Source: Dehalococcoidia bacterium (lineage in GTDB: Bacteria > Chloroflexota > Dehalococcoidia > Plut-88900). Taken from it: a stretch of DNA of 64,000 nt. The stretch covers positions 704,001 through 768,000 of the forward strand of contig CBDBLV010000005.1 of NCBI GenBank assembly GCA_965207225.1, given 5' to 3'. The position numbers were made by a program, and so were the translations under genes. Below, piece after piece: positions 32,008 through 52,127 of this stretch; positions within the stretch are counted from its first letter, which is position 1; every line of letters starts with the position of its first letter. The notes beneath the pieces are model-generated. The model had not been told where the DNA came from, did no database searches, and worked only from the letters and a program-made list of their open reading frames with translations.

Positions 32008-32084
32008 GCCTTCATCTCCTGCTAACTACTACGCCGCCCCGTGCCCCGGAGCGGCGTAGATTGCGAAACCTCTTGATTGCGGGA

Positions 32085-33254
32085 TTACTGCCTCGGCAGC
32101 CCCAGCCCCCGGGTCGCTATGATGTTCCGCTGGATCTCCGACGTCCCGCTCTGGATAGTGTCGGAGATGCTCTTCAGGTAGTTGTTCTCTATCCAGCCGT
32201 GGGAAGGAGCATTGGCCGACGCCGGCGTAAGCTGGCCGTGCAACCCCAGGATCTGCATGCTCGCCTGCATGATCCGTTGCTCTATCTCCGTCCCGAACGC
32301 CTTGCCCATAGAGGCTTCCTTGTTCGGCACCTCTCCCTTGGACTGTATGTAGGCTATCTGGTAGGAAAGCATGTAGGACAGCTCGACGTTGATCGCCATC
32401 TCCGCTAGCTTGTTGCGCACCACGGGCAGGTCGATGAGGTTCTTGCCGTTGGCCTTCGTCTCACTGGCGAACCTGCGGGTCTCGTCCAGCGCCCGACGCG
32501 CCACCGCCGCATACTCAACTCCCGACCTTTCGAAGTCCAGCAGCGTCATCCCGGCATACCAGCCCCGGTTCACCTCCGCCACCACGTTCCCCTTCGGCAC
32601 CCTGACGTTGTCGAAGAACGTCTCGTTGAAGTGGTGTCCGCCCGTCATGTCCACAATCGGCCTCACCGAGACCCCCGGCGTCTTCATGTCCGCCAGGAAC
32701 ATGGTGATGCCCCTATGCTTGGGAGCTTCCGGGTCCGTGCGGGCCAGCAGGAGGATCCAGTCGGCCACGTGCGCCTGGGATGTCCATATCTTCTGCCCGT
32801 TTATCACCCACTCGTCGCCTTCCAGCACTGCCCGAGTCTGCAGTGACGCCAGGTCAGATCCCGACTCCGGCTCCGAGTAGCCCTGTGCCCACACCACTTC
32901 ACCCCGTGCGATTCCGCCGATGTGCTCCTTCTTCTGTTCCTCCGTTCCGTGCACCATGATGGCCGGCCCGATGTACCCGATGCCCTCACCGTCCCGGCCG
33001 GGGGCGTGAGCGTAGGACCACTCGTCGGTGAAGATCACCTGCTGCATCACCGAGGCGTCGGAGCCGCCATATTCTTTAGGCCAGGAGAGCGCCAGCCAAC
33101 CCTTATCGGCCAGCTTCTTACGCATGCCCATTTCCACGGCATGGGCCTCTTCGCTGCCGGGGACCAGGTCCGGGTCTTCCTTCCATTCCGCCGCAAGGAA
33201 GTCCTTGACCTCCTGCCTGAATGCCTGCTCTTCCGCGGTGAATTGAAATCGCAT
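32085..33254 (-). CDS. Acyl-CoA dehydrogenase (FadE-like)
   Basis: QGYSEPESGSDLASL, NGQKIWTS, FNETFFDNV, GTSEIQR. Confidence 0.93.
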   Translation of the reverse strand: MRFQFTAEEQAFRQEVKDFLAAEWKEDPDLVPGSEEAHAVEMGMRKKLADKGWLALSWPKEYGGSDASVMQQVIFTDEWSYAHAPGRDGEGIGYIGPAIMVHGTEEQKKEHIGGIARGEVVWAQGYSEPESGSDLASLQTRAVLEGDEWVINGQKIWTSQAHVADWILLLARTDPEAPKHRGITMFLADMKTPGVSVRPIVDMTGGHHFNETFFDNVRVPKGNVVAEVNRGWYAGMTLLDFERSGVEYAAVARRALDETRRFASETKANGKNLIDLPVVRNKLAEMAINVELSYMLSYQIAYIQSKGEVPNKEASMGKAFGTEIEQRIMQASMQILGLHGQLTPASANAPSHGWIENNYLKSISDTIQSGTSEIQRNIIATRGLGLPRQ

Positions 33255-33359
33255 CTATATCCTCCTGGCTTTGGGGAACAAGCCCAATCATAGCGGCATG
33301 GGACATACTCGACAAGCCTGGATGTAAGTAGCTTCTAATGCCCACCCCCCGACTCCCCT

Positions 33360-33386
33360 GTCATTCCGATACCCCGCGAGGAATCT
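33360..33386. repeat. GTCATT-type REP-like element
   Basis: GTCATTCCGA...GAGGAATCT imperfect palindrome. Confidence 0.45.
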
Positions 33387-33417
33387 GGGGTGGGGTCCAT
33401 CCCCCCAGTACCAAACT

Positions 33418-33464
33418 AGAGGCAGAGGTTGGCGCTTATGCGCCAACCTCTGCCTCTGTTTTTT
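33418..33464 (+). terminator. Perfect 18-bp inverted repeat followed by a T-tract
   Basis: AGAGGCAGAGGTTGGCGC-TTAT-GCGCCAACCTCTGCCTCT-GTTTTTT. Confidence 0.55.
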
Positions 33465-33518
33465 CTCCCCCTCTCCCTTAATGGCCCTAAGGGAGAGGGG
33501 GACCAAGGGGGTGAGGGT
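33465..33518. repeat. CCCTCTCCC...GGGAGAGGG-type REP-like palindrome
   Basis: TCCCCCTCTCCCTTA-atggccc-TAAGGGAGAGGGGGA followed by GGGGGTGAGGG. Confidence 0.6.
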
Positions 33519-33566
33519 TCCCTTGGAGGGGCCAGGGGGATATCCCCCCAAATGTCACACTACCCC

Positions 33567-33595
33567 TTGACATACAAACATTTGAGCTTTATATT
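33567..33595 (+). promoter_or_regulatory. Near-consensus sigma70 promoter with no downstream CDS
   Basis: TTGACA-N17-TATATT. Confidence 0.7.
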
Positions 33596-33710
33596 TGTTC
33601 TAAGTCTAGACCCGACACCAACCTTAAGGAGGAATCGAAAACTCAGGGGAACAACCCCGGCGCCCGGAGGACTCAACGCCCTAGCCCATCCCAATGCCTC
33701 CCCTCTCCCC

Positions 33711-33742
33711 GTAGGGGGCGACCGGCCAATCGCCCCCCTTAC
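33711..33742. repeat. GTAG-type REP-like palindrome
   Basis: GTAGGGGGCGA-ccggccaa-TCGCCCCCCTTAC. Confidence 0.6.
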
Positions 33743-33856
33743 TAGGAGAGCAGGCTGCGGCACAAGCGACAGTCGCCATCTCCTCCACCCCAATCCCGAT
33801 CCATCACATTCCCCTGTCCCCCAGGCGATGGAAAGACGCCCTGGATAGAAGCCACA

Positions 33857-34102
33857 GCGGACCGGCCATTCCCCCGCCGAGAGATCCTCTCGGTGGCTGG
33901 TTAGCAGCGAGCTTACGCTATATCAAGCTAGGGGTGGGACGGACTGGCTATCCCCGCCCGGGACTGGCTCCCGGAGGTTGGCCCGTAGGCGAGCTTACGC
34001 CATATCAAGCAAGGGGAAAGGCGGGCCGGCTCTACCCCGCCGGGACCGGTTCCCGGGGGTCGGCCTGCCGGCGAGCTTGAGCCATATCAAGCGAGGGGTT
34101 TG
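33857..34102 (+). repeat. Three tandem ~82-bp units with conserved secondary structure (candidate ncRNA)
   Basis: GCGAGCTT-x-GC-Y-ATATCAAGC-N-AGGGG at 33907, 33989 and 34071; 33907-33988 vs 33989-34070 match at 63/82 (hand count); compensatory changes in stems. Confidence 0.85.
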
Positions 34103-34567
34103 CTGGACCACCCAGACCCGAGGGTGCGCGCCATGTAAAGTAACTCCCGGGGGCTACCCGCCGATCACTGGCCCCCACTGCGCCCTTAGGCGCCTGGGAG
34201 CGGGTCAAGGCTCGGATGTCTGCCCGGACAGCCCGTGCTCCCCATCAAGCATAAGGGTGCGGCCGGCTGCAAGTTCCTCCGCCTGCGTGGTGGAGCGGAC
34301 CCTCCATGGCCCCCGACAGCCGGAACACCGCAGAAGAGTGGAGGCCAACGGCTCGCCAGGTGCGTCTTCCATCGCCGCCCCAAAACCCCACCAGACAGAA
34401 CCCAAACCCGAAACCTCACAACCGAATAAAGCCTCGATGCGTCACAACCTACCAAAAGAGTTTAGCCACTCGCACGAATCGCCGACGGGGAGTATCATTC
34501 GCGTTGTACGGGACTCGCTTCTCGTGCATGTGGCCCGCTCTAGCGTGGGAAGGCGTGTGAAACAGAT

Positions 34568-35551
34568 ATGAGCGCCGTCATTATCGATGGCCGCCGGATC
34601 GCCGATAATGTCCGGCTGGGCGTTAAATATGGCGTTCAGGAGCTGAAATCCAAGACGGGGGTCGTGCCGGGCCTCGCTGTGGTCCTTGTTTCCGACGACC
34701 CCGCCTCCAGCAGGTACGTTGCTGCCAAGGAGAGGGCCGCCGAGGAGTCCGGCATCTACTCCCAGACTTTCAAACTCCCCGCCAGCACCTCCGAACCCGA
34801 CCTCCTGGACTTCATCGAACGCCTCAACCACGACGACCGGTTCCACGGCATCCTCATCCAGTTCCCCGTCCCGCACGGCATCGACATGCTCAACGTCATC
34901 AACGCCGTTGACCCCATGAAAGACATCGAGGGCCTTCACCCCCTGGATGTGGGCTGGCTCCTGGCCGGAGAGCCCAGATTCGTGCCCTGCACCCCCGCAG
35001 GCATCCATCGAATGCTGGTCTCCATTGGCCACCACCCGGACGGAAAGCACGTAGTGGTGGTCGGCGGTAGCCTCATCGTCGGCCGACCCCTCGCCGCCCT
35101 TCTTCTCCAGGAAAAGCCCTGGGCCAACGCTACCGTTACCATCTGCCATCTCGGCACCACGGACGTCCCCAGCATCACCCGCATGGCCGACATCCTCGTG
35201 GTCGCTACTGGCAACCCCCAGGGCATAACCGGGGACATGGTCAAGAAGGGCGCAGTTGTAGTGGACGTCGGGATACACGCCATCCCGGACCCGACCAGAA
35301 AGAAAGGCTACCGCATCGTCGGCGACGTGGACTACGACTCCGTGAAGGAGAAGGCCCTTGCCATAACTCCCGTGCCGGGAGGTGTGGGAGTAATGACCGT
35401 CGCTATGCTGATGGTCAACACCCTGAAGGCGGCCAGGCTTTCAGCCGAGCCCGTGCTGCCTCCCTTCAGGATCGAGGACTACATGCACATCCGCCCCAGG
35501 TACGACACCGCCCACACCTACCTGACCTACCGGGACCCTACCAGCCGATAG
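34568..35551 (+). CDS. folD: Methylenetetrahydrofolate dehydrogenase/cyclohydrolase (divergent)
   Basis: IIDG, PGLAVVLV, YxxxK (YVAAK), PCTPAG, NATVTICH, GDVD, TPVPGGVG. Confidence 0.93.
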   Translation: MSAVIIDGRRIADNVRLGVKYGVQELKSKTGVVPGLAVVLVSDDPASSRYVAAKERAAEESGIYSQTFKLPASTSEPDLLDFIERLNHDDRFHGILIQFPVPHGIDMLNVINAVDPMKDIEGLHPLDVGWLLAGEPRFVPCTPAGIHRMLVSIGHHPDGKHVVVVGGSLIVGRPLAALLLQEKPWANATVTICHLGTTDVPSITRMADILVVATGNPQGITGDMVKKGAVVVDVGIHAIPDPTRKKGYRIVGDVDYDSVKEKALAITPVPGGVGVMTVAMLMVNTLKAARLSAEPVLPPFRIEDYMHIRPRYDTAHTYLTYRDPTSR

Positions 35552-37253
35552 CGTACCCGTCCCGACGAGGGTCCGCCGCCCCGAACAGCGCCCCTGTCGC
35601 CGGGTCCCGACGTATCATCACCTCGCTCCCCGACGCACCCCAGTCCCCCAGGATCTCCAGTTCGTGGCCCTTATTCTCCAGCGCCCTTCTAGCTTTCTCC
35701 GGGAACCGGCCCTCCAACTGCAGCCTGTCCCCAAACTCCCTCGGCTCCGTCGACTCCGTATTGTTCTGAAGGTGCCTCCATCTCGGGGCCTCCACCGCCT
35801 CGGACACATTCATTCCGAAGTCCAGGACGTGGGTGATAACCTGCATGTTGGTCTGGACCTGGGTGTCGGCGCCCGGGGTACCGCAGACCAGGACCAGCTC
35901 GCCGTTCGTCATCGCATTCTCCTCCCCCTCGAAAACCATCACCGGATTCATCGTATGCCTCACCCGACGCCCCGGAGTCAGGCAGTTGATGTGGTTGGGG
36001 TCAAGGTGCCAGTAGGTCATCCGGTCGTTGAGCAATATCCCCGTCCCGTCCACCACCACCCCGGACCCGAATGACGTCTGCTGGCTCTGTAGCTGGCTCA
36101 CCGCATTACCCCACCTGTCCACTACCACAAAGCACGTAGTGTCCCCTCCCCTGTCCCTCACCGTGCCTCGTTTTGCCACCTGTCTCTCCTTCGCCGGTCC
36201 GTCCTGATACTTGTACGGGTCCCCAGGAGCGACCTCCCTGTTCACCCTCCTCCGGTCTATGAGTGATGCCCGCTCCCACGCGTACATCTTGGAGAGCAGC
36301 CCTTGAATGGGTATGTCCAGGTAGTCAGGATCGGCAACGTATGCCTCCCTGTCGGCGAAGGCCAGCTTCTTTGCCTCCACCATTACGTGCACGGCCTCGG
36401 GCGTATTGCACCCGAGATCCCGGATGTCCATATGCTCGATGATGTTCAGCTCCTGCAACAGCACGTGTCCGCTGGAGTTCGGCGGCACCTCGAAGACTGT
36501 GTGCCCGTGGTAAGTGGTCGAAATAGGGTCCTGCCACTCCCCGTGAAACCGCCCCAGGTCCTCCAGTGAGAGAAGGCCACCGTTCAACCGGTTGTAGCGG
36601 ACTATGGCCTCGGCTATTTCGCCCCGGTAAAACACGTCCGCCCCGCCGGAGGCTATCAATTCGAAGGTATCAGCCAGGTCTCCCTGGTACAGGACTTCCC
36701 CAGCCTCCAGGGGTCGACCTCCCGGCGCAAATATCTCCTTCGATACCGGGTGGTTACACAGGAACGTATCATCTGCTATATCTTTTGCGAGCTTTCTGCT
36801 AACCGGAAAGCCGTCCCTTGCCAGCCCGACCGCCGGTGCAAATATCTCGGAGATCGGTAGTGACCCGTATCTCTCATGGGCCGCGAGCCAGGCGTCCAGC
36901 AACCCCGGCACCGACACCGATAGAAGCCCCTTCTCAGGGATGCCCGTGTCCGCATACCTCTCCCGAGTCGCCGCTAGGGGCGCGGGCCCCGTGCCGTTCG
37001 CGACCTCTATCTTCCCCAAGTCCCGACGGTAGACCATGATGAAGCCATCTCCCCCTATCCCCGACATCTGTGGCTCTACAACGTTCACCGCGGCGGCCAC
37101 CGCTATCGCCGCGTCAACCGCATTCCCACCCTGTTGCAGTATCGAAATACCCGCTTGTGATGCCAGCGGATGTCCCGAGGCCACCATTCCGTTCCGCCCC
37201 ATGATGTCGGGCCTGTGCGATTCAAACTGTACGCCGTGTGGAGAACTTGGCAT
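35538..37253 (-). CDS. ggt: Gamma-glutamyltransferase
   Basis: GGNAVDAAIA, SGIGGDGF, VPG, PPNSSG, nucleophile DTT, FGSG, HTMNP, GTPGAD, ADPRRDG. Confidence 0.95.
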   Translation of the reverse strand: MPSSPHGVQFESHRPDIMGRNGMVASGHPLASQAGISILQQGGNAVDAAIAVAAAVNVVEPQMSGIGGDGFIMVYRRDLGKIEVANGTGPAPLAATRERYADTGIPEKGLLSVSVPGLLDAWLAAHERYGSLPISEIFAPAVGLARDGFPVSRKLAKDIADDTFLCNHPVSKEIFAPGGRPLEAGEVLYQGDLADTFELIASGGADVFYRGEIAEAIVRYNRLNGGLLSLEDLGRFHGEWQDPISTTYHGHTVFEVPPNSSGHVLLQELNIIEHMDIRDLGCNTPEAVHVMVEAKKLAFADREAYVADPDYLDIPIQGLLSKMYAWERASLIDRRRVNREVAPGDPYKYQDGPAKERQVAKRGTVRDRGGDTTCFVVVDRWGNAVSQLQSQQTSFGSGVVVDGTGILLNDRMTYWHLDPNHINCLTPGRRVRHTMNPVMVFEGEENAMTNGELVLVCGTPGADTQVQTNMQVITHVLDFGMNVSEAVEAPRWRHLQNNTESTEPREFGDRLQLEGRFPEKARRALENKGHELEILGDWGASGSEVMIRRDPATGALFGAADPRRDGYAIGW

Positions 37254-37422
37254 ATCCTGGCCTCCGGGAAGCTAGAGTTGGACTGGATTATAGCGGACGC
37301 TCCCTATTGCGATGCTTTGCCATTCCCTTCCTCAGCCAAGGCCTGACCGATGGATGCAACTATTCCAGTTGACTTGACTGTATCTGACAAAGGGCGCTAT
37401 TGCCCTTTTTTGATAGCCTGTT

Positions 37423-37451
37423 TTGCCCTCTCCATAGCGGAGTTGTATACT
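37423..37451 (+). promoter_or_regulatory. Putative sigma70 promoter of the P450 fusion gene
   Basis: TTGCCC-N17-TATACT; SD GGAGG before ATG 37516. Confidence 0.55.
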
Positions 37452-37515
37452 GAAATTATTGAGACCTATCTAAGGTCGCCTGGAGTGCCTAGTCGATGCT
37501 CGGAGGAACAGATCG

Positions 37516-39540
37516 ATGACCCTGACGAAGGGCACTGAATCCACTGCCCTAAGCTTGCCCGAGGAGCTAATCATCATGCTCCTCAATGAGGAAACCGGCT
37601 ATTTCCACCAGGTGCCGGGCTGGGACTTGAATTGTGCTATCGCCGGCGCCGTAATCGCCGAGCTTTCCCTGCGTTCCCGTATAGACACCGATATGGAGTC
37701 CCTGTACCTCCTGGACGACACCCCTACAGGGGATTCAACCCTCGACCCCATCCTCAAGGAAATTGCTGACGAGCCTGTTCGTCATAACGCCCAGTACTGG
37801 GTCGAGCGCCTGGCTCCTCGCGCCGAATCCATCATAGATCTCACCTTGGACCGCTTGACAGGGCTCAAAATCCTCGAGCACCACGATGGCGAGTTCTGGA
37901 CACTATCTCGTTCTGCCTGGAGCGGCGGGTCACTCAGTGACTCGAGGAACGGCTCCGCCACGGAGTTCGTCAGGACGCGTATTGACAGGATCATCTTCGA
38001 AAACGAACTCCCCGACCCACGCGACATCATCATTATCTGCCTCATCAACACCTGCGACGTTTTCCGCTTCATGTTCCAGCTGGACGAGGAGTCAGAAAAG
38101 CGCATCGGGTTCATATGCAATATGGACTTGATCGCCCAATCAATTGCAACCGCTGTATCCCAAAACTTCGCCGGCCCTTTGTTGAGACGGTCGGCGCTTA
38201 CCAAGGATATCCCGAGAGTATCCCTGCGCAAAATGCTCTTCAATCCGCATCTTCGCAATGGGAACATACCGGCTCTCTTTGCCGACCTCGCCAAGGAGTA
38301 TGGCCCTGTTTTTGAGGTCCGTCCCCCGTTTTCCAAGTCTATGATCTTCCTCGCCGGCCCCGAGACGAATCACTGGGTGCATCGCCGCGGCCGAATGTAC
38401 CTGAGGGCAAGGGACTATTTTGAGGGTCTCGAGAAGGTCTATGGCGCGGCCGGGGTGTTGCCTTCTCTGGACGGCGCCGACCACTTCAGGCTCCGCAAGT
38501 CCTTGTCGTCTGCCTATTCCCGAAAAAGACTGGCAGATCAGATGGACGACCTGTTCGGCCATGCTCGTATGCACATGGCCCAGTGGAAGGTTGGTGAGTC
38601 CTATCCTGCAACCGGCATGAGCCGCTCCATGATAAACGCTCAAATATCACCCCTCCTGATCGGCGTGGAATCCCAAGACCTCATCGACGACTTGCTGAAG
38701 TTCAAAGAACGGGCCCTTGCCGTTCACATCCTGAAAGTTATGCCCAAGTTCATGCTGAAAACTCCCGGCATGAGGCGTCGTGCGAAAAAAATCGAAACCT
38801 TGCTTGAACGCATCCAGCGTGTGCATACCCCGGCTCAGCGAGCCGGGCAACATCGAAACCTTGTGGACGACTATCTGAGCCTCCACGCCAGCGACCCCCA
38901 GTTCGTGCCAGAGTCCAACCTGCGGTTCAATTTCACCGTGGCGCTGGTGGCCAGTGCATACCTTGGCGACGCATTCAGCTTTGCCTTATACGCTATGGCT
39001 TCGCAGCCTGAAATGTACGCGAAAATCCAAGCCGAAGCCGACGCCCTGTTCGACAATGGAGACCCGGGTCCCGATAACTTTGATCCCTCTTCAATCGACG
39101 TCACCCACAGGTTCCTAATGGAATGCCTGCGCATGTATCCCATCGTTCCGATGTCCCTGCGGCACGTGATGAATGCGTGTGTTGTTGAAGATTACGAATT
39201 GCCCGTGGGCTCAAGGGTCGCCATTGCCCAGACGGCCTCCCATTACATGAGCGATATCTTTCCCGACCCCTTCAAGTTCGATATAGACCGCTACCTCCCG
39301 CCGAGAAATGAGCACCGCAGTCCCGGGTACGCACCCTATGGACTCGGAACTCACACCTGCCTCGGATCCCGGTGGATGGAACTGCAGCTTGCCGTTAACG
39401 TCCTCATGGTGGCGCATTACTTTACGCTAAAGGTGTCGCCTCCCAATTTCAAGTTAAGAATCAATCCCTTACCCTCGTTGAAACCCAGCAAGAAGCTGAG
39501 ATTTCTCATTGCAGAGCAGCGGCGAGATTTGAACGTTTAG
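37516..39540 (+). CDS. GPP34 (GOLPH3/Vps74)-domain-cytochrome P450 fusion
   Basis: N-terminal ~215 aa LSLPEELIIMLL..AGAVIAEL..RI..PTGD..LD (GPP34 pattern); C-terminal ExxR (ECLR), FDIDRY and heme motif YGLGTHTCLG. Confidence 0.9.
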   Translation: MTLTKGTESTALSLPEELIIMLLNEETGYFHQVPGWDLNCAIAGAVIAELSLRSRIDTDMESLYLLDDTPTGDSTLDPILKEIADEPVRHNAQYWVERLAPRAESIIDLTLDRLTGLKILEHHDGEFWTLSRSAWSGGSLSDSRNGSATEFVRTRIDRIIFENELPDPRDIIIICLINTCDVFRFMFQLDEESEKRIGFICNMDLIAQSIATAVSQNFAGPLLRRSALTKDIPRVSLRKMLFNPHLRNGNIPALFADLAKEYGPVFEVRPPFSKSMIFLAGPETNHWVHRRGRMYLRARDYFEGLEKVYGAAGVLPSLDGADHFRLRKSLSSAYSRKRLADQMDDLFGHARMHMAQWKVGESYPATGMSRSMINAQISPLLIGVESQDLIDDLLKFKERALAVHILKVMPKFMLKTPGMRRRAKKIETLLERIQRVHTPAQRAGQHRNLVDDYLSLHASDPQFVPESNLRFNFTVALVASAYLGDAFSFALYAMASQPEMYAKIQAEADALFDNGDPGPDNFDPSSIDVTHRFLMECLRMYPIVPMSLRHVMNACVVEDYELPVGSRVAIAQTASHYMSDIFPDPFKFDIDRYLPPRNEHRSPGYAPYGLGTHTCLGSRWMELQLAVNVLMVAHYFTLKVSPPNFKLRINPLPSLKPSKKLRFLIAEQRRDLNV

Positions 39541-39573
39541 GTCACTCTTGCCCGACGTGAGCGAAGGAGGGGC

Positions 39574-40611
39574 CTAAAGGGGTTTGCGGGCCAGGAAGCA
39601 GTACAGCGGTGTGAATACCCCGGCCCTTCCACCTGCGACATAAGCATTCGCGGTCCGATCAAGCAACCTCACCACTTCCGATGACCCTTTTGGGAACATC
39701 CCCAGCGTCTCGGCCACCCTGGACATGGCTATGAATAGCTTACGTCCCAGCGGAATCCTGCGCAGGGCGTTGCCCAGCGTTCCATGCCGATTGTCCATCG
39801 GTTGATACCACGACGTGATTGGACCGTTCCCTTCCACAGCCCGGTCCTTCCCCTCGATAACTTCAAATCCCACCGATTCCAGGTCCCGATTCACCTCTCC
39901 CATAGTCGCTATATCCTTGAGCGCGATGCCACGCATAAGTTCCCTTTTGATGGCCTGGTGCCGGCTGTCTTCGGGGTCGAACCTGTTCGTCATGCACATC
40001 TCCTGGCCCCAGAAGAAGGCCCCGGGCTTCAGCACGCGGTAGATTTCCGCGAATGCCCCTGCCTTGTCCGGCGCATGGCACGTAGATTCAATCGCGTAGC
40101 CCCGGTCGAACGTGTTGTCCGCAATGGCGCCCATGTCCATGAAACTGCATGCAAGGTAGTCAACCATGTGGTCGAGTCCCGCCTCTTGATTCAATGACCT
40201 GGCCTTCTCTAACTGGACTTCGCTTCTATTGATCCCCGTGATCTTCACCCCTGCCTCCCGGGCCACCCGGCGCATAGGACCCCCAATCCCACACCCGACA
40301 TCAATCACGGTCATGCCTTCACGCAGTTCAAGCTTGGCGATCATCAGCCTCTGGTGCCGAATCTTGGATTCCTCCAGGGTTTCGCCGGGAGTTAGGGGGG
40401 CAAAGTGGAGGGACTCGCCCCAACCGAACACCATGAACTCATTGCACAGGTCGTAGTATTCCCTCACGGTTTCGGTGTGGTCGTAGTCTGTCGAGTTGGC
40501 ATTCCTCCCGTCGGCTCTTTTCATCCATCCGTCGAAGTGGTCAACGCGTCGGTGCACGTCCGACCCACGGTACGCGGCCTTCAGCCCACTGGATAGTTTC
40601 CGGAGTTGCAC
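39574..40611 (-). CDS. Sterol 24-C-methyltransferase (Erg6/SMT)-like SAM methyltransferase
   Basis: FGWGESLHF, DVGCGIGGP, YAIESTCHAP, YRVLKPG and Sterol_MT_C-like tail AGG..VFTP..FLARKP. Confidence 0.88.
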   Translation of the reverse strand: MQLRKLSSGLKAAYRGSDVHRRVDHFDGWMKRADGRNANSTDYDHTETVREYYDLCNEFMVFGWGESLHFAPLTPGETLEESKIRHQRLMIAKLELREGMTVIDVGCGIGGPMRRVAREAGVKITGINRSEVQLEKARSLNQEAGLDHMVDYLACSFMDMGAIADNTFDRGYAIESTCHAPDKAGAFAEIYRVLKPGAFFWGQEMCMTNRFDPEDSRHQAIKRELMRGIALKDIATMGEVNRDLESVGFEVIEGKDRAVEGNGPITSWYQPMDNRHGTLGNALRRIPLGRKLFIAMSRVAETLGMFPKGSSEVVRLLDRTANAYVAGGRAGVFTPLYCFLARKPL

Positions 40612-40623
40612 TAGCCTGGTTTC

Positions 40624-43101
40624 CTATGGTGATTCCTGTTCCTGCTCATGCCGCCTGTGGATATCATCTATAGCCACGTCCAGGTCGGTCCACATCCGTT
40701 CCACCATGGAGCGCAGCCGCATGTTCTGGTATGCGCCCCAGACTGTCATGGCCGTCGGCACAACCAGGATCGATACTATCAACGAGTAGACGATGGTTAT
40801 CGCCGCCGTTATCCCGAAGTCCCGAGATGCGTCTAGCGGTGAGAATACCAGCACCCCCAACCCCAGTCCCGTGGTCAGCGCGGATCCCAGCAGCGCCGAC
40901 CCCGTTGTTGCCAGAGTCTTGATAGCCGCCTTCTCCGGGCTCCTCAGCCGTGCGAACTCTTCCCGGTACCGGTGGATTATGTGGATCGTGTAGTCCACCC
41001 CGATCCCGATGGACAGCGCCGTGATGATCGATGTAACCAGTGAGTACGGGATGTCCAGCAGTGCCATGGTGCCCAACACCCAGATCAGGACCAGCACTAT
41101 CGGGCCCACGGCGAATACCGCCAGTATCGGCTGGCGGAGCGTCACCCAGAAGAAGATTCCCAGGACAGCCAGGGCTACCCCGACCGTGGTTGTAATAGCC
41201 TCAGTCTGCCGATTCGTGATCGCATCCGTGACCGTCACGGAGACCAAGCTCAAGGAAGTCGCCGTGATGGCTTCGTCGTCACCCGACCAAAGCTCCTCGA
41301 TCTCATCCTGGAGGATCTTGTTGGCCGCCGGATCGTCGTTGAATGCCGGGAACTGGAATAGCATCGTATCTATGCCATCGGGATTGTCCACCAGCACGTG
41401 TGCCGTAGCAGGGTCCAGCTCCTCCATCCTGTCAATCAACTCTTGCATCTTTACCGGATTCAACTCGAGCCCGGCATCTGCATCCCGATAGAGAGATGCC
41501 AATGTTTCATCGAACTTGTCGCCTGGGGCCCCACTGTCGTGCGTCCAGTCCCTTACCAGCAATTCGTATGAGGAAACTATCGGCCCCGCGGCCGCCTGGG
41601 GTCGACGCCTCTCATCCTCGAAAGCGCGCTCGAGGTCTCGCATGTTCAATAGCGTGCGCGTCTCCGTCGCCTCTGCCTTGACGATCACGCTCACCATCTC
41701 TGTAGATCCCCCCACCGACGCGTCCAGCGTATCCATGTCGGTCCTCAGCTCTCCACCCCTCGGCAGGATGTCCCGAATGCTGAACTCCGACTCGATGTCC
41801 GTGGCCGCAAACCCGAGCCCCACTGTAATCGCCAGCACTACCAGCAGGAATGGAGCGGGCCGCCTAGTTACGTTCCTCCCCAACACCTCAGCCAGTCTCT
41901 CGACCCCCGGAAGCGCCTGGGCAATGGGCCGAGGTGGTTTCAGCGTTCCTCGGGCCTCTCGCCTCCTGTCTATGATCGTCCTGCCTGCCGGGACAAAGGT
42001 AAGCATTACAATCAGGCTTAGCCCCACCCCCAGCCCCCCGATGATCCCGAAGTCTCCTACTATCTCCACCGTCGAGAACAGGCTCACCAGAAGGCTCGCG
42101 ATCGTCGTCACCGCAGCCAGCACCAGCGGCAGAATCACGTTTCGCAGTCCCGTCCGTATCGCAGGCGTCACTGTCAGGCCCGCAGTGCGTTGCTCCCTGT
42201 AGTGCGAAATCATCTGGATCGCGTAGTCAACCGTAAGGCTGATCACGATGATTGGCACCATCGTTGTCAGTGAGTTCGGAGGCCCCGTTGCCCCTAGGGC
42301 ATTTGGCCCGAGCCACCCCTCCGCCCCGACTATCCAGATCAACGCTACCAGGAGGCCTACCAGCGTAAGCAGCAGGTCGGTGATGGTGCGCATGAACAGC
42401 AGGAGCAGCCCCGCAATCAGCAAAAATGCAATCCCAATAAGCGGGAGCATTCCCGTTTCCGTGGCTTCCTTGTATTCGTCTTCGATTATCACTGGGGAGA
42501 GGCTGCTTACCTCCAGGCGCCCTTCGCTCTCTACCGCCAGCTCGTGTATTCTTCGCTCCGCTTCCTCGACCCGCTCGTCCCCCGTGTCCCGAAGCCGGAT
42601 GTTGGCTATCGAGATCTGAGTGCCATCCGTGTCAGTTCCTGTCAATGCCTCCAACGCCCTCTTGATCTCCGGAGGCCCGGTCGCCGCCTCTATTCTGGCT
42701 TCGGTAACTGACTCAAAGTCCTCCACCTGCAGAAGGACCCGTACCAGGTCCGTCGGCGCAATTACTGGGTCGGTCGGCGCTAGCAGCCCCGACACCGCCG
42801 GATCCCCGACCACCTCGTTGATCAGGTCGTCCATCTGGGACAACCCGTCTGGAGTCAGGGTGTCGCCCCGGAAGATCAGCGTCACCACGCTAGTCTCTCC
42901 CGACTCTCCGAACAGTTCGTCAATCTCATTCATCGCCGCGGTTATGGGACTTCCCTTGGGCAGGGTTGCTTCGGTTTCGGGAGGAGGCGCGCGGCGATCC
43001 GCGCCCATCGCCAGCAACACTGTAATGATCAGCAGGATCAATATCGTTATGTATGGACGGGCAGTAATCACCCAGCTAAGCCAACCGAGGATTTTGTTCA
43101 T
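40624..43101 (-). CDS. MMPL/RND-family lipid transporter
   Basis: 825 aa in two repeats (1 TM, large loop, 5 TM); SLTVDYAI and GIGVDYTIH; SALTT. Confidence 0.92.
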   Translation of the reverse strand: MNKILGWLSWVITARPYITILILLIITVLLAMGADRRAPPPETEATLPKGSPITAAMNEIDELFGESGETSVVTLIFRGDTLTPDGLSQMDDLINEVVGDPAVSGLLAPTDPVIAPTDLVRVLLQVEDFESVTEARIEAATGPPEIKRALEALTGTDTDGTQISIANIRLRDTGDERVEEAERRIHELAVESEGRLEVSSLSPVIIEDEYKEATETGMLPLIGIAFLLIAGLLLLFMRTITDLLLTLVGLLVALIWIVGAEGWLGPNALGATGPPNSLTTMVPIIVISLTVDYAIQMISHYREQRTAGLTVTPAIRTGLRNVILPLVLAAVTTIASLLVSLFSTVEIVGDFGIIGGLGVGLSLIVMLTFVPAGRTIIDRRREARGTLKPPRPIAQALPGVERLAEVLGRNVTRRPAPFLLVVLAITVGLGFAATDIESEFSIRDILPRGGELRTDMDTLDASVGGSTEMVSVIVKAEATETRTLLNMRDLERAFEDERRRPQAAAGPIVSSYELLVRDWTHDSGAPGDKFDETLASLYRDADAGLELNPVKMQELIDRMEELDPATAHVLVDNPDGIDTMLFQFPAFNDDPAANKILQDEIEELWSGDDEAITATSLSLVSVTVTDAITNRQTEAITTTVGVALAVLGIFFWVTLRQPILAVFAVGPIVLVLIWVLGTMALLDIPYSLVTSIITALSIGIGVDYTIHIIHRYREEFARLRSPEKAAIKTLATTGSALLGSALTTGLGLGVLVFSPLDASRDFGITAAITIVYSLIVSILVVPTAMTVWGAYQNMRLRSMVERMWTDLDVAIDDIHRRHEQEQESP

Positions 43102-43226
43102 CGTTTACCCTTCCGTATCAGGCGTCCATGGGTTTCGAAACAGCCGTCTTCCGGACCAGTTCATTTGGCCTATCCCTAACGACATCCTTCCACTGCATCT
43201 TCTCTCGAGGTCCGGTCCCAGTCCAA

Positions 43227-44333
43227 CTACGATACTCCCGAATGTACCCTCGCCACGCCTTCGGGCTCGCCTGCCATCGACCCGTTCGATTCGAAGGAGT
43301 CGGCGTAAAACTGCTTGCAGTATTGCCTGAAGGGTATGATCTCCCCATCGGAAAGACATAGGCGCGGCTGGGCCCGGTAGCGCTTACGGCTCCAGATGAC
43401 CACGTCTTGCATCACATCCCCGCGCTGAAATCCCGCAACGAATCTGTTGAATACCGGGGCCCGATATCTCACCGGCAAGAACCCCAGGCCCGCAAACCAC
43501 CGTTTCGGCTTCCTTATCTCCCTTGCCTGGGAGACCAGTGACAGGTCGATCAGCTTGCCGTCCACGGGCGTCGCCAGTATCCACAGGCGCGTATCCACCC
43601 CTATCGACTTCTCTCGGATCTCAACGTACGAATACCCGAGCCCGTATATCTGCGTATTTGCAGATACGTCCAGGGTGACCTCCCCGATCTTCGCCACCCT
43701 GCGCTTACTCCTGAAGTCAAACCGGCTCTCAAGGTAGTGTCTATCCACCAGGAGCTTTCCCACTCTCTTCACATTGCCGTATCCATGTATATAGCGGAGG
43801 TGCGCCAGGTCCACGGAGTTTTCCGTCGTATCCTGCGGATGGCCGGGAAACCGGATTGTCTGGATCTTGGTTCTGGTCCAGCCTGTCTGGTCGGGTTCCT
43901 CTTGTGGAAGGTCCCATTGCGGCCCCCGCCCCCCGATTCCCCACCACCCCAAAATCAGCCCCGCAATCTCTCGCGTCTCGAAAACCCTTAGTTTTGCTGT
44001 TTTCGGCGGCTCGGCGAAGGGGGTAGCAACGCACTGCCCGGCAGCATCAAATTCGAATCCGTGAAACGGGCATACCAGCCGACCCCCGCGCACGCACCCT
44101 CCGGCATCGCTGCCCAGGTACGATCCCAGGTGCGGGCAATACGCCTCGGCCACGCAAACCCGACCCTTATCGCCGCACCAGGCTACAATCTCCTCCCCCA
44201 TCCATGTCCCTTGGAGGAGCTTGGCCTTTTCTATAGCCTTTCGGCTCGCGATGAAATACCAACCCTCCGGGAAGGGAGAGGGGGGTTCGTCCAGCATTGG
44301 TGGCCTGTGTCGGGTCGTTGTCAACCTGCGCAC
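43227..44333 (-). CDS. Rieske non-heme iron oxygenase, Neverland/KshA family
   Basis: FPEGWY, YCPHLG..CPFHG, ENSVDLAHLRYIH, C-terminal D.VIW..K.Y...P.L...DG.I..FRQY.KQFY. Confidence 0.88.
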   Translation of the reverse strand: MRRLTTTRHRPPMLDEPPSPFPEGWYFIASRKAIEKAKLLQGTWMGEEIVAWCGDKGRVCVAEAYCPHLGSYLGSDAGGCVRGGRLVCPFHGFEFDAAGQCVATPFAEPPKTAKLRVFETREIAGLILGWWGIGGRGPQWDLPQEEPDQTGWTRTKIQTIRFPGHPQDTTENSVDLAHLRYIHGYGNVKRVGKLLVDRHYLESRFDFRSKRRVAKIGEVTLDVSANTQIYGLGYSYVEIREKSIGVDTRLWILATPVDGKLIDLSLVSQAREIRKPKRWFAGLGFLPVRYRAPVFNRFVAGFQRGDVMQDVVIWSRKRYRAQPRLCLSDGEIIPFRQYCKQFYADSFESNGSMAGEPEGVARVHSGVS

Positions 44334-44485
44334 CTTGCTTTTACGGTCGAGTTGGCCGTAGCTTTATCCGTCAAGGTTATGTCTTACCTTAGTTGTACTG
44401 TTTGGACAGCGCGAACTCTATCACGCCCAGTTTCAGGCGGGCAATCTCAGGCGCTTATTGGCGTATTCACCAGTGCAGGATCGCA

Positions 44486-45949
44486 TCATGCGAAACCGTA
44501 GGCTTCCTCCGTATCCTCAACGCGCATCAGCAGCGCCGGCAAAATGGAGAACAGCGCAAGGAAACCCGCTATCATGAACAGGTTCTGGAAGACTGTCACA
44601 CCGGCCTCTATCAGGGGTGCTTCCGTCTCCTCGAAGGTTTCACCCAGGGTCACATCCGCAGTGAGCGTGTAGAAACGCTCTATGCCCCACGCCGAAAGGG
44701 CTGCCAGCCCCAACGCCATACCGACCATCCGAGACGCTGTCACCAGCGACGCCGCCGCTCCCCAGTAGTCTCCCGGCGCCGCGCTAAGGGCGCTCACAGT
44801 GATCGGTGGGATTACCAGCCCGAACCCCAGGCCCGTGATTACCAGAGGCGCCGTAAGCCTGAGTTGCTCAACCTGTGTCTCCCAGCCACTCATGAACAGC
44901 AGGCCCGTGCCTATGAATGCCAGGCCGGTAATGCACACCGCGCGCACACCCGTCCACCGCAGGATGTAGCCTCCCACTATTGCTCCCACGGGTATTGCCG
45001 CCGTGAGCCGGAACAGGTGCAGGGCGCTCACCCAGGCCGGTTTCTCCATCACGGTAGCTGCCATCAACGGCACCGCTACCAGGGAGATTATCAGCGCCAC
45101 CCCCACCAGGAACTGGGTCGCATTGGAGGACAGGAAGGCCCGCGAGTTGTACAGAAATGAGGCCAGCAGAGGCTGGGCGGTACGCCTCTCCATCACGATC
45201 AGTATCCCCACCAAAACGACTCCCAGGGCGATCATGAAATACGGGACTATCGACTCCCCGGAAAAGATCGTCCTCTGGGAGAGCGCCAGGCTCAATGTGG
45301 TAAGAGCTCCTCCCAGGATCAGCGCCCCGAGGTAGTCCATTTTCGCCGATGGGTTGGCCCGGTTCTTCAGGATGGCCAATAATGCGATTAGAAAGAAGCT
45401 CTGCGGGATGTCCAGCCAGAATATCCACCTCCACCCGATCCACTCGATAATCCCACCACCATACAAAGGCCCCAGCACCGACCCCGCCTCCGCCGACGCC
45501 GCAACCAGCCCAAGGGCCACCCCTCTCTTCTGCGGCTCGACGGTCCCCACTGCCATCGCGAGCCCTATAGGAACCGTGGCCCCACCCCCCGCCGCCTGCA
45601 GCACCCTCGCCGTTACCACCCACGGAAAGTTCGGCGCCACCGCCACAAGCGCCGACCCTATGGAGAACAATACAAGTGCCGCCTGGAACATCCTCACCCG
45701 ACCATGAACGTCGGAAAGCCGCCCCGCTAGCGGCATTGCTACCGTATAGCTCACCAGGTATGCCGTTACAATCCAGGAGGCCGTGTCCAGGTCCGTAAGC
45801 GGGATCTCCAGGTCCACCATCACACTGGGCAGTGCGGCAACCACTACGGTCTGGTCAAGGGCGGTGGAGAATACCCCCAGGCAGAGGATCCCCAGGATGA
45901 CCGACTGCGAAGAACCAAGGGCCATCAGGCCCGACCTGGCTGACTTCAC
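44486..45949 (-). CDS. 14-TM MFS transporter, P55 (Rv1410c)-like
   Basis: ALDQTVV, WIVTAYL..Y...MPL.GR.SD..GR, RMVGM..G.AALSAWG..RF as recalled for mycobacterial P55. Confidence 0.88.
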   Translation of the reverse strand: MKSARSGLMALGSSQSVILGILCLGVFSTALDQTVVVAALPSVMVDLEIPLTDLDTASWIVTAYLVSYTVAMPLAGRLSDVHGRVRMFQAALVLFSIGSALVAVAPNFPWVVTARVLQAAGGGATVPIGLAMAVGTVEPQKRGVALGLVAASAEAGSVLGPLYGGGIIEWIGWRWIFWLDIPQSFFLIALLAILKNRANPSAKMDYLGALILGGALTTLSLALSQRTIFSGESIVPYFMIALGVVLVGILIVMERRTAQPLLASFLYNSRAFLSSNATQFLVGVALIISLVAVPLMAATVMEKPAWVSALHLFRLTAAIPVGAIVGGYILRWTGVRAVCITGLAFIGTGLLFMSGWETQVEQLRLTAPLVITGLGFGLVIPPITVSALSAAPGDYWGAAASLVTASRMVGMALGLAALSAWGIERFYTLTADVTLGETFEETEAPLIEAGVTVFQNLFMIAGFLALFSILPALLMRVEDTEEAYGFA

Positions 45950-46722
45950 GGCTGCGAAGCTGTCTCCGGGACCTGGATTTCCACCGGCAGGTTGATATCG
46001 CGTATCTTGATCAGGCGGCTTGTTTCGGGGGCGTCGTCCGCGAAGATTTTTCCCAGGATTTGGAATTGTGTGATCGCGTGGTCGGCCTCGCTGAACCAGA
46101 AGCCCAGCCTGAGCTCGTGTCCCGGGTCAACGGAGGTAATCAGTTCCCCCAGGTCCTCTGATAAGGCGTCTCCTTGTACCCGGATGCTCTCTACCCCGCC
46201 AATCGACTCCCTTCCAGTGATCTGCGTGTTCTCCATCGCGGGCAATACTCGGGCCAGGATGGCGCCTATCCCCCCAAAATTGAAGGGCACTTGTTCCAGC
46301 GGAAGAGGTAGCCACGGCGCATCGGCCGAGAATTTGATGAATGAGTCCTCGCCTACCGCCGTCATCTCGATCACAACGAATCCGAAACTGGGATTCTCCA
46401 CGTTCACGTACATCTTGAAGCCGTCCGGCGACTTCACCTCCCCCTCCACGCTCTTCAGGGTCATCCCGAAGAACTCCTGCCCCGACTCCTTCTCATCCAC
46501 CATCTCAAACTTCACCGTTGAAATCGCTGTCAGTTTCTCCTCAGCGCTGGAGACCAGTTCATCAAGGGTGATCTCGGGCATCGGTGTTGCTGTTGGCTCA
46601 ACAGTGGCGGGGGCCTCCGCTTCGGGCTCGGCCCCCGACCCGCACGCCGCCCCCAAAACCAGCAGACCTATCAAGAGAATAGTGACGGCAACCCTTGAAC
46701 GTACAGCCTCGGACAACTTCAT
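45946..46722 (-). CDS. LppX/LprAFG (LprG)-like lipoprotein
   Basis: Signal peptide with lipobox GAAC; beta-rich body, GRESIGGVES, C-terminal INLPVEIQVP; 4-nt overlap with the P55-like MFS. Confidence 0.8.
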   Translation of the reverse strand: MKLSEAVRSRVAVTILLIGLLVLGAACGSGAEPEAEAPATVEPTATPMPEITLDELVSSAEEKLTAISTVKFEMVDEKESGQEFFGMTLKSVEGEVKSPDGFKMYVNVENPSFGFVVIEMTAVGEDSFIKFSADAPWLPLPLEQVPFNFGGIGAILARVLPAMENTQITGRESIGGVESIRVQGDALSEDLGELITSVDPGHELRLGFWFSEADHAITQFQILGKIFADDAPETSRLIKIRDINLPVEIQVPETASQP

Positions 46723-47057
46723 CTGCTGGTCTCCATATAGATTAGCCTTGTAACCACACTAAGGTGCCGTTTCGTAGGTAAAAGGAGGGCGATATCTTTC
46801 AGCGGGATTCGCTGTACCTCCACCCCACCCCCGGGGACATGCCAACCCCACGGCTTTATTGCAGCTTCCACAGCCGCTAAGCGCGTTGGAGATGCCGTTG
46901 TTTGCCGCTTGTCGGTATGCAAAACAGCGTGATTCGTATTCAACGAGAAGCGCAAGCAGACCGGACCACCGCCGAAACAGTATCCAGAACCTGCTTTCTT
47001 GTCAAACTGCCCCGTCGCCTGCCTATCCTTCAGGCATCGTTTCCTGATCTTATCCTG

Positions 47058-47591
47058 CTATTGGGTTTCCTTCGTAATAGCCAAGTCTTCGTTGGATCCG
47101 AAGATGAAACCACCCAGAAAAGGCTCGAAAATACTACGGTATTCCTGGATCTGAGATTCGATGTCCAGCCCTTCTTTATCTTGCACTTCTACTTCAAGAA
47201 CCTGTCCCACGCCATCTACATCATCGAGATTGAAGATGACATTATCTTTGTGCCACAGTTCTCTACGCTTACGCACAATAGCTCGGATTCCCAACGCCGC
47301 TTTCAGAACATCAGACAGTCGAGAGTCGTTGACATTCCACATCTGAAAAGTGCTCGTTCTGGCCCCTTCTTCTTGTCGGTCACAATAGTGGATCAGATGT
47401 CGGCTCCCTTTTTCAGCGCGTAGCTTGAGACGTCGAACCCCTGCCCCATCTTCATGAACTGGTAGGTGATAGAAGTAGTCCACCTGCTCTTTAGTCTCTA
47501 TAAACAGCGCTCCGGACTCCTGGAGAATCCTTCGCACCGGTGCAAAGTCGGGACAATACGCCTTTATTTCTCGATTTGTTCTTGGGGCCAT
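47058..47591 (-). CDS. CYTH-domain (class IV adenylate cyclase-like) protein (start moved to 47591)
   Basis: N.EIKA, QVDYFY, RLKLR, VRKRRELW, LDDVDGVG..LEVEV. Confidence 0.88.
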   Translation of the reverse strand: MAPRTNREIKAYCPDFAPVRRILQESGALFIETKEQVDYFYHLPVHEDGAGVRRLKLRAEKGSRHLIHYCDRQEEGARTSTFQMWNVNDSRLSDVLKAALGIRAIVRKRRELWHKDNVIFNLDDVDGVGQVLEVEVQDKEGLDIESQIQEYRSIFEPFLGGFIFGSNEDLAITKETQ

Positions 47592-47780
47592 GACGCCTTT
47601 TAGTGGATGGTAGATTCTGTGCCATTCTACTCCACTACTTATTGCATACACCGTGTCATCCCAATGCCCCACTAAAGATCTGGGGCGAGGCCTTATCCCC
47701 TTCCCCAATTGCATATCCCCACCATCGGGACTAGACTCATTTCACCATCCAATCCTCCCACGGAAGGCGGATAATCAGCC

Positions 47781-48845: not shown

Positions 48846-48886
48846 TCCATCTCAAGGGGGAGGGGCATTCCGCTCGCCTGCCTCTG

Positions 48887-48935
48887 GCGGGAGCGGGAGT
48901 CGAAGCCTGTCCTGAGGCTCTCGAAGGGGGTCTCA
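48887..48935. repeat. REP-like element between convergent genes
   Basis: GCCTGTCCTGAG..TCGAAGG core resembles common extragenic repeats. Confidence 0.35.
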
Positions 48936-49044
48936 AGAGCGGAATGGGAGGGGTGCTGAGACACCAGGCTGGGTTAGGCAAAAGCCCCTTGCCGAGAGAA
49001 GGCTAGCCCCTACATCTGGTCTTCCAAGAGGCTGGGAGTTCCAA

Positions 49045-50618: not shown

Positions 50619-50701
50619 CCCGGTTACTCCCCCTGTCTGTTGTGGGAGTTATGGTAAGGCCGACAGACACGGGTGTCAATTCCTCTACGAAAGTGCTCTT
50701 G

Positions 50702-52111: not shown

Positions 52112-52127
52112 CTCCAAAACTCCTCTG

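Follow-up and report, generated by a model that had tools for sequence, protein, structure and literature searches.

The 64-kb window analysed here, a stretch of contig CBDBLV010000005.1 from the Dehalococcoidia bacterium assembly GCA_965207225.1, carries on its reverse strand a gene for a divergent S-adenosylmethionine (SAM)-dependent C-methyltransferase of the sterol methyltransferase (SMT) family, together with genes for a transporter and a Rieske oxygenase, and on its forward strand a gene for a GPP34-cytochrome P450 fusion (Table 1). Since the close full-length homologues recovered in a database protein search are all about 345 residues long and are matched with 100% coverage, the start and length assigned to the methyltransferase appear sound.

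Table 1 Features of the methyltransferase locus, with positions in the 64-kb window
Feature	Position	Strand	Description and basis
Divergent SMT-family SAM-dependent C-methyltransferase	39574..40611	-	345 aa, GTG start; open reading frame and Pfam
Sterol_MT_C domain (PF08498)	39580..39765	-	residues 283-344; E 6.6e-16, 58.6 bits, cut-off 21.7
Region I	40402..40440	-	acceptor-binding motif, reads EFMVFGWGESLHF; GWG, H and F kept; translation
Region II	40276..40302	-	SAM-binding DxGxGxxGP, reads DVGCGIGGP, intact; translation
Region III	40081..40110	-	FDRGYAIEST; alignment, coordinates computed from residue numbers
Region IV	39991..40029	-	reads KPGAFFWGQEMCM; G217 equivalent kept; translation
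MMPL-type RND transporter with sterol-sensing domain	40624..43101	-	825 aa; 12 bp upstream of the methyltransferase
Rieske oxygenase with KshA_C catalytic domain	43227..44333	-	368 aa; upstream of the transporter, same strand
GPP34-cytochrome P450 fusion	37516..39540	+	674 aa; convergent with the methyltransferase, stop codons 33 bp apart

The methyltransferase is a member of the SMT family. Its C-terminal Sterol_MT_C domain, the match proposed as a check in an earlier reading made from the sequence alone, scores far above the Pfam cut-off and is the only copy detected in a scan of the whole genome (62.1 bits), while the remainder of the protein matches class I methyltransferase domains (Methyltransf_11 at 66.9 bits and CMAS at 67.2 bits, as well as Methyltransf_25 and Methyltransf_31). 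The second check, phylogenetic placement, gave the same answer. In a FastTree tree of 117 rows, the gene's group forms a clade on a long stem (0.67, support 100) nested in the SMT family, and a 40-row IQ-TREE tree places it likewise (stem 0.93, support 100). One non-SMT methyltransferase of the same genome served as outgroup. The nearest canonical neighbours in the tree are Dehalococcoidia SMT paralogues with an ordinary FYEYGWG..FHF motif.

This clade is large. Of 4405 candidates in a protein search, 1797 had E <= 0.001; the best 120 are 76-95% identical to the window protein and all carry Sterol_MT_C. A search of 50%-identity representatives gave 269 matches at E <= 1e-30; identities across the clade range from 65 to 96%. 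The sequence-only reading, which had described a eukaryote-type sterol methyltransferase, was therefore right about the family but not about the gene being a eukaryote-type one-off, since it belongs to a large bacterial clade.

To place the four signature regions, we assigned yeast numbers by anchoring on motifs and residues given in a preprint (10.64898/2025.12.19.695621), namely 84GWGxxFHF91, 125DxGxGxxGP133, E195 and G217; the numbers therefore reflect motif anchoring and not an alignment to ERG6. Region I departs from the usual form (F)YE(Y/F/W)GWGxxFHF, the methyltransferase having FMVFGWGESLHF, with Y81, E82, Y83 and F89 (yeast numbering) replaced by Met, Val, Phe and Leu. In Region IV the KPGG turn is followed by Q-E-M and not by Y-E-W, which corresponds to Y223->Q and W225->M. 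Region II is invariant in the alignment at columns D104, G106, G108, G111 and P112, and Region III keeps the Glu equivalent to yeast E195 and has the clade-specific residues R170 and G171 directly after the conserved Asp.

The departures in Regions I and IV, which the sequence-only reading had pointed out, are confirmed by the translation and by comparison with canonical family members. In 99 canonical SMT representatives, a set from which rows shorter than 300 or longer than 450 residues and 21 fragments or clade members were left out, the altered positions hold Y (90%), E (83%), F (92%), Y (70%) and W (86%), whereas 121 clade members hold M (99%), V (93%), L (100%), Q (100%) and M (100%). 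Because the replacements are near-fixed in the one set and the usual residues prevail in the other, they are not due to chance. WGQEM or WGQDM is likewise present in 113 of the 121 relatives found with the other-phylum homologue P0271.

Along the protein as a whole, 42 positions are conserved in the clade and in canonical SMTs alike, including the SAM motif, H69 and E175, and 22 are specific to the clade (H45, E58, M60, V61, L68, L73, Q87, M90, I91, V116, E119, V122, S156, R170, G171, Q203, M205, L225, M226, I229, M272 and A300). The latter concentrate in Region I (E58, M60, V61, L68), Region III (R170, G171) and Region IV (Q203, M205), with a further cluster (L225, M226, I229) around yeast position 249, which is itself Ile. 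The preprint cited for the yeast numbering lists 25 residues shared by every SMT that acts on desmosterol or 24-methylenecholesterol; under the motif-anchored mapping the window protein retains 23 and has lost two, T78 (N57 in the window protein) and F89 (L68). The same source ties the regions in which the Region I and IV changes fall to sterol binding through mutagenesis.

Four aromatic residues and one acidic residue of the predicted acceptor pocket have thus given way to Met, Val, Leu and Gln, and the pocket appears to have been rebuilt in a way that marks a conserved clade and not a private mutation. The protein nevertheless looks functional, with an intact cofactor site beside the different acceptor pocket, and dN/dS values of 0.13-0.19 against six orthologues indicate purifying selection. 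Clade-wide fixation, this selection and the mutagenesis of the corresponding regions together bear out the earlier suggestion that the altered Regions I and IV point to a different acceptor or product; among its specific proposals, cyclopropanation or an unusual sterol alkylation by this enzyme is possible.

The clade crosses phylum boundaries. Source names of its members include Dehalococcoidia/Chloroflexota, Rhodothermaceae/Bacteroidetes, Nitrospira and Gemmatimonadota, and the related loci belong to records whose titles give Dehalococcoidia, Chloroflexota or SAR202 cluster bacterium. Among the 120 relatives listed for P0271, which are 72-97% identical to it, the source names include Rhodothermaceae, Bacteroidetes, Gemmatimonadota and, twice, Nitrospira sp. 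Against each of the 121 sequences of the other-phylum set the window protein shows 65-75% identity, about as much as with some members of its own genus (77%). Two metagenome contigs found in a scan with sister sequences (L115 and L116) carry a methyltransferase of 68% identity with the same kind of motifs (..WSWGESLHF.., ..GQEMCLT).

Signs of exchange come from within the genus, which is not monophyletic in the IQ-TREE methyltransferase tree and is split into three places. When the same-genus genome G007 (locus L017) is compared with positions 32085-50145 of the window, the flanking genes are 91-98% identical (MMPL 91%, P450 93%, GGT 91%, FolD 94%), whereas the methyltransferase is just 77% and the Rieske gene 84% identical. 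The split of the genus in the tree, combined with a methyltransferase that has diverged amid near-identical flanks, suggests exchange and looks like allele replacement by recombination or transfer. As a separate observation, a single predicted product, protein P0308 (477 aa), combines the C-terminal portion of a KshA_C Rieske oxygenase with a complete clade methyltransferase; this could be a genuine fusion or else a gene call that reads through from a Rieske gene immediately upstream. Literature searches on sterol methyltransferases in Chloroflexi returned nothing on this clade, those on SAR202 and sterols gave no report of a methyltransferase, and the clade motifs and the names Chloroflexi and Dehalococcoidia had 0 matches in three supplementary spreadsheets of PMC10070321.

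To establish which neighbours accompany the methyltransferase, we clustered the open reading frames at 81 loci (the window and 80 others), nine of which end at contig edges; the methyltransferase itself was recognised in 79. Its most constant partner is the GPP34-P450 fusion, present at 67 of the 81 loci and adjacent and convergent in 59, followed by the MMPL transporter (62 loci, directly upstream of the methyltransferase in 55), the Rieske/KshA_C oxygenase (50 loci) and an amine-oxidase-family flavoenzyme (37 loci); 12 loci have none of these four cassette partners. An early reading that the neighbourhood is not conserved, based on only 4 of 12 close-relative loci sharing the Rieske-MMPL-methyltransferase/P450 arrangement, was overturned by this larger set. 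Genes for ERG4/ERG24-family reductases lie within 10 kb of the methyltransferase at 7 of 83 loci. On L115 and L116 the methyltransferase follows an AcrB-type pump and an HlyD-family protein, with a 676-aa GPP34-P450 located 6-7 kb away.

The partners can be described by their domains and, at a distance, by their solved relatives. In the fusion protein, GPP34 (91.6 bits, residues 14-214) precedes a p450 domain (125.5 bits, residues 247-660) whose nearest but distant PDB entries are CYP51 structures (7jj1/6mi0/6mcw, E ~5e-19). By eye, the P450 part seems to be without the I-helix acid-alcohol pair (..AYLGDAFS..), and the Cys-ligand motif FGxGxHxCxG is present. The Rieske oxygenase (Rieske 57 bits, KshA_C 86 bits) is closest, again distantly, to 3-ketosteroid 9alpha-hydroxylase (KshA; 4qdc, E 2e-23); an identity as SdmA was ruled out (33 bits against a cut-off of 600).

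The transporter matches MMPL (149.9 bits), Sterol-sensing (49.8 bits) and Patched (29.8 bits) in Pfam, and its nearest PDB entries, all distant, are MmpL4/3/5, Patched and HpnN. It thus resembles the RND transporters HpnN (hopanoid) and BstA (sterol) in being MMPL/HAE3-like, in having a sterol-sensing domain and in its weak similarity to HpnN. It differs from both in falling far below the equivalog cut-offs: all NCBIfam scores are sub-threshold (HAE3 221.8 bits; HpnN 104.9 against 751.85; BstA 22.1 against 1400), and on L115 and L116 its place is taken by the AcrB-type pump and its HlyD-family partner.

The flavoenzyme has LkcE as its nearest, distant solved relative and is also similar to a fatty-acid isomerase-like amine oxidase; it was ruled out as HpnE (22.6 bits against a cut-off of 283), and true hpnE genes were located elsewhere. 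In the window's own genome the flavoenzyme orthologue lies on another contig (G000:C1:197237-198595, L111:9241-10599, reverse strand) and is 76% identical to the cassette copy at L034. Because this off-cassette copy adjoins a DDE transposase gene, at a distance of about 2 kb, the cassette may have been split by rearrangement.

The GPP34-P450 neighbour has exactly the architecture of GPP34_L, which is described in PMC11706023 as accounting for 656 of 663 long GPP34 proteins and as reported only from sponge symbionts, of many phyla. That source reads GPP34 as a phosphatidylinositol 4-phosphate-binding factor that modulates phagocytosis, and its main text does not contain the words methyltransferase, sterol, squalene or MMPL. 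With an SMT-family methylase and a lipid pump as its neighbours, GPP34-P450 may instead have a role in lipid tailoring.

Sequence runs labelled as sponge metagenomes tentatively link the locus itself to sponges. They contain 43% and 21% of the sampled words of positions 37516-44333, and one such run yields contigs 98% identical to positions 37516-39775 and 94% identical to positions 41056-44333. Cassette sequence is likewise present in runs labelled marine metagenome and metagenome. The cassette is probably shared among sponge-associated bacteria of several phyla. In metagenome runs X18 and X13, many more contigs of at least 90% identity pile up on positions 39568-41163, which cover the methyltransferase and the 3' end of the MMPL gene, than on the flanks, with a summed word depth of up to 923 against about 10-90; the pile-up fits a gene conserved across many community members, and such depth cannot rank genes.

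Which lipids the carriers can make was then read from their gene content. The window's genome (4.03 Mb in five contigs, 92.3% complete, 8.3% contaminated, with rpoBC and a nuo operon) has a single triterpenoid cyclase, of the DxDD type and with 835.9 bits against the squalene-hopene cyclase equivalog model (cut-off 431.1). Beside it lies an HpnD gene (286.9 bits against a cut-off of 278.6), and the genome has two SQS_PSY genes. The squalene epoxidase family PF08491 has no match in this 92.3% complete genome, and no oxidosqualene cyclase (OSC) was found in it, a query with the squalene epoxidase-OSC fusion of the relative G032 matching only the DxDD cyclase at 28% identity. Since neither an OSC nor a squalene epoxidase was found, the methyltransferase does not belong to a de novo sterol pathway in this genome.

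Of 61 genomes of the class, 13 encode a full-length orthologue (67-96% identity). SQS_PSY genes are present in all 13 of these carriers, against 12 of the 48 non-carriers. A cyclase is present in 10 of the 13, and none was found in G016 (100% complete) or G059 (96% complete, one contig). An OSC occurs in one, G032, where a 1263-aa squalene epoxidase-OSC fusion is clustered with genes for an ERG4/ERG24 reductase, a P450, a Rieske/VanA_C oxygenase and an epimerase-family protein (L109:120-7958) in what looks like a complete de novo sterol cluster. In G032 a canonical-motif SMT gene adjoins a KshA_C Rieske gene. Both G032 and G059 hold such a second, canonical-motif SMT, 39-43% identical to the window protein, and because the two types occur together in these genomes they are distinct, coexisting paralogues. 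The canonical paralogue of G059 (FYEYGWGRSFHF; L027:9008-10144) is present although no cyclase of any kind was found, in a genome with an hpnC-hpnD-hpnE operon.

We extended these counts to the best 80 of 290 matches in species-representative genomes (loci L029-L108); as these carriers are all kin, and at least 7 of the 80 are also in the sample of class relatives, the numbers are counts and not independent trials. SQS_PSY genes are found in 76 of the 80 carriers (48/50 and 28/30), any cyclase-type match in 59 (41/50 and 18/30) and an OSC-like protein, 60-68% identical to the G032 fusion, in 4. No cyclase match was obtained in 21, and 17 carriers combine SQS_PSY with the absence of a cyclase. 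The four without SQS_PSY (G105, G107, G116 and G138) are all without a cyclase as well. Two closed genomes of cyclase-less carriers have hpnC-hpnD-hpnE operons scoring at or above the cut-offs, save for one HpnD at 277.3 against 278.6. A squalene-synthesis, cyclase or OSC gene lies within 10 kb of the methyltransferase at only 1 of 83 loci (an HpnD-like gene at L105). An exclusively hopanoid acceptor was rejected as the sole reading on these data, given the 21 cyclase-less carriers and the cassette kept by 8 of the 9 of them that were cross-tabulated.

We infer activity, mechanism, acceptor and export from these sequence data. In the mechanism that we propose, the methyltransferase would methylate an isolated C=C bond at the end of an isoprenoid chain, with SAM as the methyl donor, and a proton would then be lost. 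This would be the carbocation chemistry of SMTs, and the window protein retains the SAM site as well as the counterparts of yeast H90 (His) and E195 (Glu). The acceptor would be squalene or a squalene-derived lipid made by the cell, such as the isopropenyl end of hopene, and the product would then probably be oxidised by the GPP34-P450, the KshA-like Rieske oxygenase and often the flavoenzyme, before export by the RND lipid transporter. By the gene-content counts, squalene is the one endogenous triterpenoid common to carriers with an OSC, carriers with a squalene-hopene cyclase and carriers with neither, and the high conservation of the methyltransferase favours one common acceptor. The genome data accommodate a non-sterol triterpenoid acceptor, for example squalene, no less well than a sterol.

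A parallel is found in the alga Botryococcus braunii, whose TMT-1, -2 and -3 are described as SMT-like, as having altered sterol-binding regions and as methylating linear C30 triterpenes at their ends (PMC3533583 and PMC5978867), squalene among them (PMC3533583). Our literature search on squalene methyltransferases returned Botryococcus only. The window protein is likewise SMT-like with variant sterol-binding regions, and squalene should be available in the same cell, as the HpnD and two SQS_PSY genes indicate. In Botryococcus the methylated products undergo further oxidation and export into the matrix, a sequence reminiscent of a cassette of methylase, oxygenase and exporter. The TMTs are eukaryotic algal enzymes, however, and their likeness to the window protein is a functional analogy only. 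On balance we lean, tentatively and with less than even confidence, towards squalene or a squalene-derived lipid as the acceptor of a TMT-like C-methylation.

Several points weigh against this choice. The TMT-likeness is an analogy, and the association with SQS_PSY is confounded by relatedness and lifestyle, as the carriers are mostly Dehalococcoidia. The four carriers without SQS_PSY include at least one, G107, with a full cassette, and at 82 of the 83 loci the methyltransferase has neither a squalene-synthesis nor a cyclase gene within 10 kb. The partners, moreover, are steroid-like (the KshA-like Rieske oxygenase, the CYP51-like P450, the sterol-sensing transporter and the ERG4/ERG24 genes), and these fit a polycyclic, sterol-like acceptor as well or better. 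Sponge symbionts are also the only reported source of GPP34-P450 (PMC11706023), so that a substrate supplied by the host is an obvious alternative.

The explanation that takes up these points is methylation of a sterol side chain at a non-standard site, for example of a delta-25(27) sterol at C-26/27 or of a bulkier 24-alkyl sterol. Genomes like that of the window would obtain this sterol from the sponge, and the few carriers with an OSC would make it themselves; the cassette would then oxidise and move the product. Membership of the SMT family, from Pfam and both trees, favours it, as do five sterol-like families in or near the cassette: the Rieske oxygenase, the P450, the sterol-sensing domain of the transporter, the ERG4/ERG24 reductases and the KshA_C Rieske oxygenase beside the canonical SMT of G032. 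The published sponge-symbiont exclusivity of GPP34-P450 (PMC11706023) and the relatives of 94-98% DNA identity in a sponge metagenome run point the same way. According to PMC10070321, C-26 sterol methyltransferases are still undiscovered, and in the preprint cited above inactive SMT homologues may need other sterol substrates. Import would be required, however, as an OSC-like protein was found in just 4 of 80 carriers and in 1 of 13 carriers among the class relatives, and RND pumps are typically exporters. A sterol acceptor would also leave the squalene-synthesis genes of 76 of 80 carriers unexplained. Within the protein, the loss of T78 and F89 removes two residues conserved in all SMTs active on desmosterol or 24-methylenecholesterol, and the loss of four pocket aromatics is a bigger change than known switches such as Y81F. 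We regard this explanation as the main rival, close behind the first choice, though on the unlikely side.

The published bacterial SMTs from sponge-symbiont and environmental metagenomes (PMC10070321 and preprint 10.64898/2025.12.19.695621) belong to the same family, with a class I methyltransferase domain and Sterol_MT_C, and are partly sponge-associated. The window protein differs from them by Y81M, E82V, F89L, Y223Q, W225M, T78->N and Ile at 249, and its genome by the lack of a detected sterol biosynthesis cluster or OSC. PMC10070321 describes a contig, JGIcombinedJ30088_10000835, on which two ERG6 homologues (35% and 42% identity to ERG6) lie beside OSC, ERG11, ERG24 and sdmA homologues, and the legend of its Figure 3 mentions cluster SMTs that did not methylate.

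If the acceptor were not a triterpenoid, the cassette could be a detoxification and efflux unit. The methyl group could then go to an unsaturated fatty acyl chain, as with cyclopropane or mycolic acid synthases, to the tail of a polyprenyl compound or quinone, or to some small molecule that the sponge environment supplies. The CMAS match would fit this, though it is partial (profile positions 6-217, or 212 of 273), as would the small-molecule methyltransferases that are the best solved relatives (3bus, MitM) and the top NCBIfam models, sarcosine/dimethylglycine N-methyltransferase followed by cyclopropane fatty acid synthases. A P450, a methyltransferase and an efflux pump together also resemble a xenobiotic-handling unit, and the flavoenzyme partner is nearest LkcE and the fatty-acid isomerase-like amine oxidase. 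The NCBIfam scores, however, lie far under their cut-offs (78.5 bits against 550 for the N-methyltransferase, 58.4 against 650 for CfaB and 44.3 against 390 for mycolic_MTase), and the solved structures cover the Rossmann core alone (3bus, residues 47-199). The SMT-specific C-terminal domain and the placement inside the SMT tree speak against such an acceptor, which we consider improbable.

An ordinary sterol C-24 methyltransferase, ERG6- or SMT1-like and with motif differences that only shift the product mix, is less probable still, and we give it very little credence. Yeast ERG6 and plant SMT1 and SMT2 share with the window protein the SAM motif, the GWG..HF core, the Region III Glu, the Region IV Gly and the C-terminal domain, and presumably the same carbocation chemistry. 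Identity to canonical family members is 30-44% (about 30-35% to eukaryote-length SMT representatives, in comparison with which the pocket aromatics are replaced), H90 and E195 are kept, and bacterial SMT mutants with Ile at 249 still methylate once. Against this stand the failure to find an OSC or squalene epoxidase in the genome, the 22 fixed clade-specific changes in acceptor regions, the replacement of 2 of the 25 residues common to SMTs active on standard sterols, and the retention in G032 and G059 of a clade member beside a canonical paralogue, which argues for a separate job. That the protein transfers no methyl group at all, serving as a lipid-binding or regulatory subunit of the cassette, is hardly credible given a complete SAM motif and catalytic-region His and Glu invariant in the clade, the low dN/dS, identities of 65-96% across phyla, and substitutions that are coordinated and conserved and not degenerate.

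Taken together, these data describe a very common and strongly conserved SMT-family clade with a putatively rebuilt pocket that is found in several phyla and travels with oxygenases and a lipid pump. What this analysis adds is the gene-content statistics, the cyclase-less hpnCDE carriers, the list of specificity positions and the squalene, TMT-type alternative. If squalene or hopanoids are methylated, this would be a new bacterial lipid modification; if sterols are methylated at a new position, the clade would bear directly on the problem of the 26-methyl biomarkers. Side-chain alkylated steranes are read as early animal or algal fossils, and which living organisms and enzymes produce the parent lipids is described as open and contested (PMC10070321). 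Either way, bacterial SMT homologues and GPP34-P450 fusions, published separately as signatures of sponge symbionts, would be joined in one pathway. The clade also carries a warning, namely that a Sterol_MT_C match in a metagenome is not always a capacity for 24-alkyl sterol synthesis.

A broader proposition, unlikely as a whole, is that the clade is a non-C-24 alkylating enzyme of sponge holobionts, either the first bacterial squalene/hopene C-methyltransferase or a terminal (C-26/27) sterol methyltransferase, which has been transferred among symbiont phyla with the P450, the Rieske oxygenase and the exporter. Exported methylated triterpenoids would then be among the sources of the unusual sponge lipids that serve as Neoproterozoic 'sponge biomarkers', and the GPP34-P450 would be a lipid-tailoring enzyme.

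Other features of the window lie outside the cassette core. A promoter and terminator scan of positions 37200-44700 gave 3 and 6 sites against 2.8 and 5.0 expected from shuffles, and so nothing usable. Two genes upstream of the Rieske gene (44486-46722, reverse strand), one for an MFS transporter and one for a protein of 258 aa without a Pfam match, each recur at 21 of the 81 loci; they are a lineage-specific extension rather than part of the core. Further out (25009-28518, 30526-33254 and 49045-58295), the window encodes two FMO/Baeyer-Villiger-type monooxygenases, an FAD_binding_2 flavoprotein beside an acyl-CoA dehydrogenase, a ring-hydroxylating Rieske oxygenase and a sarcosine-oxidase-like gene set. 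None of these outer oxidative genes recurs with the methyltransferase across the 81 loci, and a comparable oxidative gene content has been published for SAR202 (PMC5395668).

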